Source: a virus | Virus record (IMG/VR): IMGVR_UViG_3300027749_000042 | Strand: one strand, 5' to 3' | Length of the DNA: 64,000 bases | Part shown: one piece after another, positions 61,998 through 63,202 of the stretch | Position numbering within the stretch: position 1 is the stretch's first letter | Layout of the letters: every line of letters starts with the position of its first letter | The notes under the pieces: generated by a model | Seen by the model: only the letters and a program-made list of their open reading frames with translations | Databases searched by the model: none | What the model was told of the DNA's origin: nothing | Program-made: the position numbers and the translations under genes

Positions 61998-62053
61998 AAT
62001 AGACCTTGACAATCCCGTCCCGACCATATAAAATAAAAATAATGGAGAGTGTG

Positions 62054-62257
62054 ATGCAATTTTTAGCCAAACCTAATCTAAATAACTCCATAGGTCAAAA
62101 GGTGTTCGATACGTTGGCAGAAGCAGTCAAGTACCTAGAATACAAAACTGGGCACAAAATGGATTTTGTTGTCGATAGAAAGACGAAGGTAAAAACCTAT
62201 GACTGGGAAATCATCGGTAAGCTCAAGCGGATCGAAGCGCAACCCAATCGCGCTTGA
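62054..62257 (+). CDS. Hypothetical protein
   Basis: SD GGAG; upstream TTGACA (62006) and TATAAATA (62027). Confidence 0.55.
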   Translation: MQFLAKPNLNNSIGQKVFDTLAEAVKYLEYKTGHKMDFVVDRKTKVKTYDWEIIGKLKRIEAQPNRA

Positions 62258-62399
62258 TTTGGCTACTACTAAATACCATGCTCGTGTCGTTGCATCTCGC
62301 AAAGGCTACAAGCGTAAAGGTCGCGTAGCTCAGCTGGATAGAGCAACGGATTTCTACTCCGTGGGCCGAGGGTTCGAATCCTTCCGCGACCGCCACTAA
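62199..62399 (+). CDS. ArfA-like alternative ribosome rescue factor reading into tRNA-Arg (40 codons precede the tRNA)
   Basis: KRNPIALDLATTKYHARVVASRKGYKRK resembles the ArfA core; SD GAAGGT; no stop before tRNA +1. Confidence 0.55.
   Translation: MTGKSSVSSSGSKRNPIALDLATTKYHARVVASRKGYKRKGRVAQLDRATDFYSVGRGFESFRDRH
62319..62395 (+). tRNA. tRNA-Arg(TCT)
   Basis: GGTCGCG/CGCGACC acceptor, ACGGA-TT-TCT-AC-TCCGT arm, GGTTCGAATCC, CCA. Confidence 0.95.
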
Positions 62400-62415
62400 C
62401 AAAGAGGTTGACAAG

Positions 62416-62784
62416 GTGACAAAGATCGTTTATAATGGTTGCTTCGGTGGCTTTGGTTTGTCCGATGCCTGCATTCGTAGGTACCTCAAGATAAAGGGTG
62501 TCCCTTTTACTGAGGAAGATTCGGAATATCCTAGCTTTCGCAATGTCCGATTTCGTATCGGTACTAGCGTAATGAATGAGGGTGACTTTTTCAATGATTG
62601 GAATATTGAGCGGACAGATCCTGTTCTCGCTCAAGCCGTAGAAGAGCTTGGTAAAGCTGCGTCTGGTTATTGTGCTGACCTGTGCATCCGTGAGTTAGCA
62701 CCTGGTACGCGGTACATTCTGCGAGAGTATGACGGTTCCGAATGGATCGAAACCGAAGATGAAATGGAATGGAGTGTAGCATGA
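62416..62784 (+). CDS. Conserved phage hypothetical protein
   Basis: KIVYNGCFGGFGLS...RTDPVL.QAVEELG...EYDGSE. Confidence 0.7.
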   Translation: MTKIVYNGCFGGFGLSDACIRRYLKIKGVPFTEEDSEYPSFRNVRFRIGTSVMNEGDFFNDWNIERTDPVLAQAVEELGKAASGYCADLCIRELAPGTRYILREYDGSEWIETEDEMEWSVA

Positions 62785-63124: not shown

Positions 63125-63202
63125 CCTCCGTTGGTGTAGCGGTCCAACATACCCGCCTTTCAAGCGCGGAGATCATCGGTTCAAATCCGATACGGAGGAC
63201 CA
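63125..63202 (+). tRNA. tRNA-Glu(TTC)
   Basis: CCTCCGT/ACGGAGG acceptor, CT-TTC-AA loop (one anticodon-stem mismatch), GGTTCAAATCC, CCA. Confidence 0.85.

Follow-up and report, generated by a model that had tools for sequence, protein, structure and literature searches.

ArfA-type factors are known as bacterial back-ups of the tmRNA system. Control of their genes through stop-less mRNAs is textbook knowledge as a feedback loop: the messages of bacterial arfA and brfA lack a stop by design, and trans-translation controls both genes (PMC8012679). E. coli ArfA (YhdL, PF03889), whose family is found in beta- and gammaproteobacteria, is a small basic protein with 52-55 residues in its mature form, and the stop-less end of its message is produced by RNase III or by a terminator; it is characterized by RF2-dependent hydrolysis of peptidyl-tRNA on non-stop ribosomes and by synthetic lethality with ssrA. 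No arfA gene was present in any of the 2,376 alphaproteobacterial genomes surveyed (PMC11633108, Table 1). BrfA of B. subtilis and ArfT of Francisella are other small rescue factors that depend on a release factor (PMC8012679, PMC6299226); the BrfA mRNA is also stop-less, due to a terminator inside the ORF (PMC8012679, PMC6299226), and the ArfT gene has an ordinary stop, its product acting with either RF1 or RF2.

Phage-encoded ArfA is already known as well. Gene g10 of Citromicrobium phage RXM is stated to encode ArfA (PMC8953757), and other annotated examples are found in Brevundimonas phages Kabachok, Domovoi and others, and in Ochrobactrum phage vB_OspM_OC (p093). These homologous ArfA-family proteins, 38-65 aa long, are carried by phages of Alphaproteobacteria; no functional test of them was found in the literature. 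Their genes have stops of their own, no tRNA within 600 bases on either side, and a KGKGS or RGRGS-type loop. The entries for DUF7230 (PF23876) and phrog_20887 bear no functional annotation, and a link to ArfA is not recorded in them. Mitochondrial tRNA punctuation, reportedly described by Ojala et al. in 1981, is a process in which an mRNA lacking a complete stop codon of its own receives its 3' end by excision of an abutting tRNA.

Here we describe a phage locus in which an arfA-like ORF of 40 sense codons runs without a stop into a tRNA gene. Like ArfA, the encoded protein is small and basic, and has the same N-terminal offset and a core alignable with ArfA residues 13-45. Its mRNA is likewise predicted to lack a stop, with the level of the protein under the control of trans-translation (PMC8012679). 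Unlike ArfA, it is carried by a phage, with likely alphaproteobacterial hosts that lack arfA (PMC11633108); its loop is three residues shorter, it ends at the equivalent of ArfA K42, and RNase P cutting at a tRNA, rather than RNase III or a terminator, would create the stop-less end of its message. It has no sequence relationship to BrfA or ArfT, differs from the annotated phage ArfA proteins in its loop, its lack of a stop and its adjoining tRNA, and shares the short-loop consensus of DUF7230/phrog_20887; the two members whose contigs were examined lie in T4-like phage contexts. In contrast to mitochondrial punctuation, where polyadenylation completes the stop, no completion is expected here, and the lack of a stop would be the signal in its own right. 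What appears to be new is the route by which a phage is predicted to generate the stop-less end. The first-pass annotation knew of no description of such an architecture. This holds for the tRNA-made non-stop design, as the literature searched contained no description of a tRNA rendering a phage arfA stop-less, nor any of DUF7230, but not for phage ArfA as such, which had already been annotated (PMC8953757).

Organization of the Locus

The window analyzed is a stretch of viral DNA of 64,000 nt (IMG/VR record IMGVR_UViG_3300027749_000042), whose large genes encode DNA polymerase, helicases, and ribonucleotide reductase, typical of a big lytic phage. On the plus strand, ATG 62199 opens an ORF of 40 sense codons (62199-62318), the last being AAA (62316-62318), with no stop of its own; its product is a short-loop, DUF7230-like protein of the ArfA superfamily. 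Codon 41 begins with base +1 of a tRNA-Arg(UCU) gene with encoded CCA on the same strand (62319-62395; identified by ARAGORN, anticodon tct, and by Rfam), so RNase P is expected to cut exactly where codon 40 ends. The frame remains open through the tRNA and the CCA up to the first stop, TAA 62397-62399; the mechanical ORF thus comprises 66 aa, including a read-through tail (62319-62399, plus strand) of 26 codons set by the tRNA sequence. As read from the sequence, a Shine-Dalgarno-like GAAGGT (62185-62190, plus strand) is located 8 nt before the ATG; relatives have AAGGAG or GAAGGA at the corresponding position. The start, the ribosome-binding site, the 40 codons, the position of codon 41 on tRNA base +1, and the stop located only after the CCA are all as the first-pass annotation had given them.

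The ORF begins within an upstream gene for a protein of 67 aa with no assigned function (62054-62257, plus strand). This gene is called on related contigs, its product is 68% identical to the orthologue in locus L011, and no family was assigned to it in Pfam or PHROG; it was not found elsewhere as a companion of phage arfA genes. The first 59 nt of the arfA-like ORF are the last 59 nt of the upstream gene, read in another frame. The dual-coding overlap (62199-62257 in the window) spans 44-59 nt, and its core, TATGACTGGGAA, does not vary among the 15 IMG/VR contigs retrieved with it.

The nearest candidate promoter for the upstream gene, the arfA-like ORF, and the tRNA-Arg gene is a sigma-70-like pattern match from a consensus scan (62006-62034, plus strand; TTGACA, 17 nt, TAAAAT; 11/12). 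A scan found no terminator between this candidate and the tRNA, and there is no room for a promoter between the ORF and the tRNA. Just 3' of the tRNA, a candidate perfect sigma-70 consensus (62408-62436, plus strand; TTGACA, 17 nt, TATAAT; 12/12) extends over the GTG (62416) at which the next gene starts. As phrog_16527 aligns from residue 2 of the 62416 ORF, the next gene is probably read from a transcript passing through the tRNA.

Relationship to ArfA

Searches with the window protein itself were unproductive with respect to ArfA. Neither the 40-mer nor the 66-mer had a match in Pfam at E ≤ 10, and so neither reached the ArfA cut-off (PF03889, 25.5 bits); no match was found in NCBIfam; BLASTP produced no alignment with E. 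coli ArfA; and a shallow profile of six sequences searched against PDB yielded only L23 (E = 0.12). The link to ArfA surfaced only via more distant orthologues and a deep profile. Orthologues L011 and L012, found in the same slot and with the same overlapped start, have the full KGKGS-Y-x-R-K segment and match Pfam ArfA with 35.5 and 35.7 bits, respectively (cut-off, 25.5 bits; E = 7e-9 and 6e-9), and the L011 protein has 16 of 31 residues identical to E. coli ArfA (52% over 31 residues). The window protein lacks KGKGS, the conserved loop that in ArfA is located in the mRNA channel: R-K-G is followed there by Y-K-R-K, and alignment with the KGKGS-Y segment of the orthologues reveals a deletion of three loop residues; a shortened GKGS segment had been noticed earlier from the sequence. 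Long-loop and short-loop forms intergrade within one syntenic slot, and the short loop is the commoner form, with about 100 of some 145 best representatives versus 28 with the long loop.

The short-loop consensus is R-N-P-I-A-x-D-L-R-T-P-K-Y-R-x-R-V-V-x-S-K-K-x-Y-x-R-K. When a profile of short-loop members only (A4, 89 sequences) was searched against 177,635 PDB sequences, the top six matches were all E. coli ArfA chains (E = 0.0075-0.025), the next match having E = 0.94. In hhalign, the short-loop profile aligned with E. coli ArfA with a probability of 86% (E = 5e-6) over ArfA residues 13-44, with a three-residue gap in the loop. The alignment covers ArfA residues 15-31 (N-x-I-A...L...[FY]-R-x-R-V-V), which contact RF2 in E. 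coli (PMC6299226). By homology established through orthologues and profiles, the window protein is ArfA-related. The likeness to the ArfA core, which the first-pass annotation had drawn by eye, is upheld as homology by the orthologues that pass Pfam, the ArfA chains retrieved by A4, and the hhalign alignment, even though the window protein fails the Pfam ArfA search that had been suggested as its check.

The window protein also matches phrog_20887 (E = 4.4e-5, 24.4 bits), its residues 13-40 aligning with profile positions 3-30 of 46. Short-loop members have sub-threshold Pfam matches to DUF7230 (PF23876; 12.7-26.8 bits versus a cut-off of 27), while long-loop members match ArfA; for the window protein, no DUF7230 match reaching the cut-off of 27 bits was reported, and its 78%-identical homologue in L010 scored 17.7 bits. 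One short-loop member is named ArfA in IMG. Judging by these profile relationships, DUF7230 looks like a branch of the ArfA family that is carried by phages and has the short loop. A weak match to DUF7230 (E = 0.11) was obtained with E. coli ArfA itself.

Prediction of a complex of the 40-mer (60-row alignment) with Caulobacter RF2 scored 0.03, which speaks neither for nor against an interaction; ArfA is disordered off the ribosome and contacts RF2 only on it.

Coding Potential and Selection

Loci of the clade were gathered from metagenome contigs and IMG/VR, the contigs coming from freshwater samples. Close metagenomic homologues of the arfA-like ORF exist, and searching 1.84 billion proteins with the clade profile yielded 267 representative relatives at E ≤ 1e-3; the family is a large one of small, mostly phage-borne proteins. 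In codons 21-40, which are not overlapped by the upstream gene, the minimum numbers of changes at codon positions 1, 2, and 3 across 10 loci were 14, 12, and 31, respectively (chi-square p = 0.003), with nucleotide identity down to 57%. Pairwise comparisons gave changes of 2/1/10 at the three positions between the window and L003, and 1/3/12 between L010 and L020. The start codon and the Shine-Dalgarno-like purine run with its AAGG core are conserved in relatives. Folding gave no RNA structure signal for the window ORF or for the stop-bearing L011 orthologue (z from -0.6 to -0.95), and no RNase III-type hairpin was found in either of them. This pattern of divergence indicates that the arfA-like ORF is a real gene under purifying selection.

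A DNA-level search of GenBank phages returned tRNA matches only, and in the nearest virus record (G001) the region is absent. A tblastn match in Roseobacter phage CRP-13 was rejected as due to chance, as it falls within a 313-aa protein.

The tRNA-Arg(UCU) and the ORF-tRNA Junction

The tRNA-Arg is well above the Rfam cut-off (RF00005, 68.1 bits versus a gathering score of 29), and compensatory double changes were observed at 10 of its 21 pairs among phage homologues. As a diverging tRNA with compensatory changes should be functional and used, it must be cut at +1. The predicted cut follows established RNase P rules: base -1, an A or a G, cannot pair with the discriminator G to lengthen the acceptor stem, and hence cleavage at +1 is expected. 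Since a functional tRNA starts right after codon 40, each maturation must leave an mRNA ending on a sense codon.

ARAGORN identified seven tRNAs in the window, and open stretches of 30-43 codons enter three of the others in some frame. As open frames thus enter tRNAs by chance, the case for the junction must rest on homology and conservation. Screening of every locus of the clade gave 12 distinct DNA versions of the fused locus, corresponding to seven distinct 40-residue proteins with identity down to 53-57% at the protein level and 57% at the nucleotide level. In all 12, tRNA-Arg(UCU) starts at nucleotide 121 of the ORF and the last ORF codon is AAA or AAG, never a stop and never followed by a spacer. 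The read-through tails of these relatives comprise 7, 12, or 26 codons, as changes in the tRNA sequence move the first stop. In locus L018 (1030-1041), AGA makes up two of the last three ORF codons and is read by the adjoining tRNA-Arg(UCU); this is not so in the window.

Among the top 150 family representatives, only this clade ends in a translated tRNA. Where the tRNA is absent, clade members end at an ordinary stop after 47-50 codons, both those with the long loop (L011, L012, L030, and L037) and those with the short loop (L020 and L029). In L001 (1056-1530) and L002 (285-675), a homing gene of the Endonuclease VII family (PF02945) together with a different tRNA-Arg(UCU) has replaced the resident tRNA after its first 11 bases; the arfA-like ORF there has a stop after 49 codons and keeps G-R-V before this new stop. 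A remnant of the 3' end of the old tRNA is still present in both loci. From the stop-bearing sister phages and the L001/L002 insertion it follows that non-stop expression is not obligatory for the family.

The comparison of related phages that the first-pass annotation had suggested as a check shows that the stop-less junction and its frame are invariant in all tRNA-adjacent homologues, while sister phages without the tRNA carry stops. The tRNA and the junction are the same in all fused members. This suggests that the stop-less junction arose once; with a single origin, its conservation could partly be due to inheritance.

Predicted Mechanism

The following scheme can be proposed. The arfA-like ORF would be co-transcribed with the tRNA-Arg(UCU) that starts at the next base, and host RNase P, in maturing the tRNA, would cut exactly after codon 40, turning each processed transcript into a stop-less arfA-like mRNA on which ribosomes would stall at the 3' end. 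As long as trans-translation had spare capacity, provided by host tmRNA and by a phage tmRNA such as that of close relatives, the peptide would be tagged and degraded. Once trans-translation became saturated, untagged peptide would be released and would assist in rescuing stalled ribosomes from broken mRNAs, probably through a host release factor that it recruits in the way ArfA recruits RF2. Translation of a transcript prior to its processing would yield a longer product with a tail set by the tRNA, and it is predicted that this tail is made from unprocessed transcripts only.

We assign a probability of roughly 0.5 to the reading in which the locus is a functional 40-residue short-loop gene of the ArfA family, whose mRNA is made stop-less by the RNase P cut and whose product is a tmRNA-sensing rescue peptide. 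A broader proposal, to be taken as tentative and a little short of even odds, is that a clade of T4-like phages, probably of Alphaproteobacteria devoid of arfA, has rebuilt the arfA feedback switch by means of RNase P, and that DUF7230 is a large phage-borne branch of ArfA providing release-factor-dependent rescue in many T4-like phages. The logic of the bacterial loop would then have a viral counterpart in which tRNA processing makes the cut, in phages whose relatives carry tmRNA and whose likely hosts are reported to lack arfA. If this is true, phages manage ribosome stalling in infection, e.g., when host mRNA has decayed or nucleases attack tRNA or mRNA; DUF7230, seen in T4-like phage contexts, gains a function; and the known routes to regulatory non-stop messages are extended by one in which RNase P processes an mRNA-tRNA co-transcript.

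Alternative Explanations

The length of the peptide is a difficulty for a 40-residue product, as the basic C-terminal tail of ArfA has to be long enough to fill the empty mRNA tunnel. According to hhalign, the 40-mer ends at the equivalent of E. coli ArfA K42, i.e., between the inactive and active E. coli truncations: ArfA is active when cut back to Asn47 and inactive when truncated after Met40, and thus needs residues beyond Met40 (PMC5378476). In all 127 family representatives, the tail after Y-x-R-K contains at least three residues, with about two basic ones among the first six; the read-through forms would have such residues, and a product ending at K40 would be shorter than any other of the family. 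The active product could therefore be the read-through protein (47-66 aa) from uncut transcripts, with the tRNA lending a basic tail and a stop, and the non-stop mRNAs being a by-product cleared by trans-translation. The composition of the tail fits such a role: it opens G-R (G-R-V-A-Q...), as in several family members, G-R being among the commoner first two tail residues in the 127 representatives, and has two Arg in its first seven residues, and L001 and L002 have kept G-R-V before their new stop. However, the tail varies in length among relatives and its sequence is dictated by tRNA constraints; moreover, cleavage at +1 for the mature tRNA destroys the mRNA, making the yield of full-length protein hostage to the speed of processing, and a stop with a spacer, which would be an easy fix, occurs in none of the 12 versions. 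As the tail is fixed by tRNA constraints, its sequence cannot separate this possibility from the 40-mer; we regard this chief rival as unlikely, although serious enough to be kept in view.

The tmRNA-sensing reading has to be weighed also against an ArfA-derived protein that is not a rescue factor, and instead binds the empty mRNA channel or another ribosomal site, e.g., inhibiting host trans-translation or translation, with the junction being unrelated to tmRNA sensing. The missing KGKGS loop would be consistent with this, as would the fact that Pfam keeps DUF7230 separate with no function assigned, and the absence of arfA from the 2,376 alphaproteobacterial genomes (PMC11633108) makes a partnership with their RF2 only putative. 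Nevertheless, the RF2-contacting segment (residues 15-31) aligns well, long- and short-loop forms intergrade in one syntenic slot, and single KGKGS residues are dispensable in E. coli ArfA (PMC6299226), all of which makes a non-rescue function improbable. Hardly credible, finally, is a chance open frame, or a mere conserved 5' leader of the tRNA that is not translated. Frames do enter other tRNAs of the window by chance, and the first 59 nt would be conserved anyway as part of the upstream gene, but the divergence biased to third positions in the non-overlapped half, the conserved start codon and Shine-Dalgarno-like sequence, the lack of an RNA structure signal, and the membership in a protein family of hundreds with profile homology to ArfA all speak for a translated gene.

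tmRNA, Hosts, and Genomic Context of Homologues

An alpha-type two-piece tmRNA (RF01849; 107-125 bits versus a cut-off of 50) was identified in the closest large relatives, G002 (L023, G002:C1:139351-139706) and G003 (L022, G003:C1:49118-49482), and also in the KGKGS-type relative G004 (L021, G004:C1:5630-5979). Genes for SmpB or release factors were not found in the related phage genomes. The isolated phages with homologues have alphaproteobacterial hosts; the source of the window is probably a T4-like phage infecting an alphaproteobacterium.

A tblastn search with the L011 protein revealed homologues in phages of Brevundimonas, Caulobacter (Cr30), Citromicrobium, Ochrobactrum, and others, several of them already annotated in GenBank as alternative ribosome-rescue factor. 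The homologue of Caulobacter phage Cr30 (L013, about 553-711) is unannotated and is separated by one gene from an RNA ligase gene. On a T4-like contig, a short-loop homologue (L025, 5001-5129) lies between T4 RNA ligase 1 and polynucleotide kinase-phosphatase genes, and a second short-loop representative, also in a T4-like context, is found among MazG and 2OG-oxygenase genes. The ArfA-like family may be linked to tRNA-repair modules. A role in defence against host tRNases is speculation, the only hints being these homologues beside tRNA-repair genes in other phages.

Another tRNA of the window (63125-63202) has the anticodon UCA; it is labelled 'SeC' by ARAGORN, matches the Rfam tRNA family with 54 bits, and is kept in relatives L002 and L006-L009. 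This tRNA is a candidate UGA-reading (opal-suppressor-like) tRNA; among release factors, RF2, with which ArfA works in E. coli, is the only one that reads UGA.
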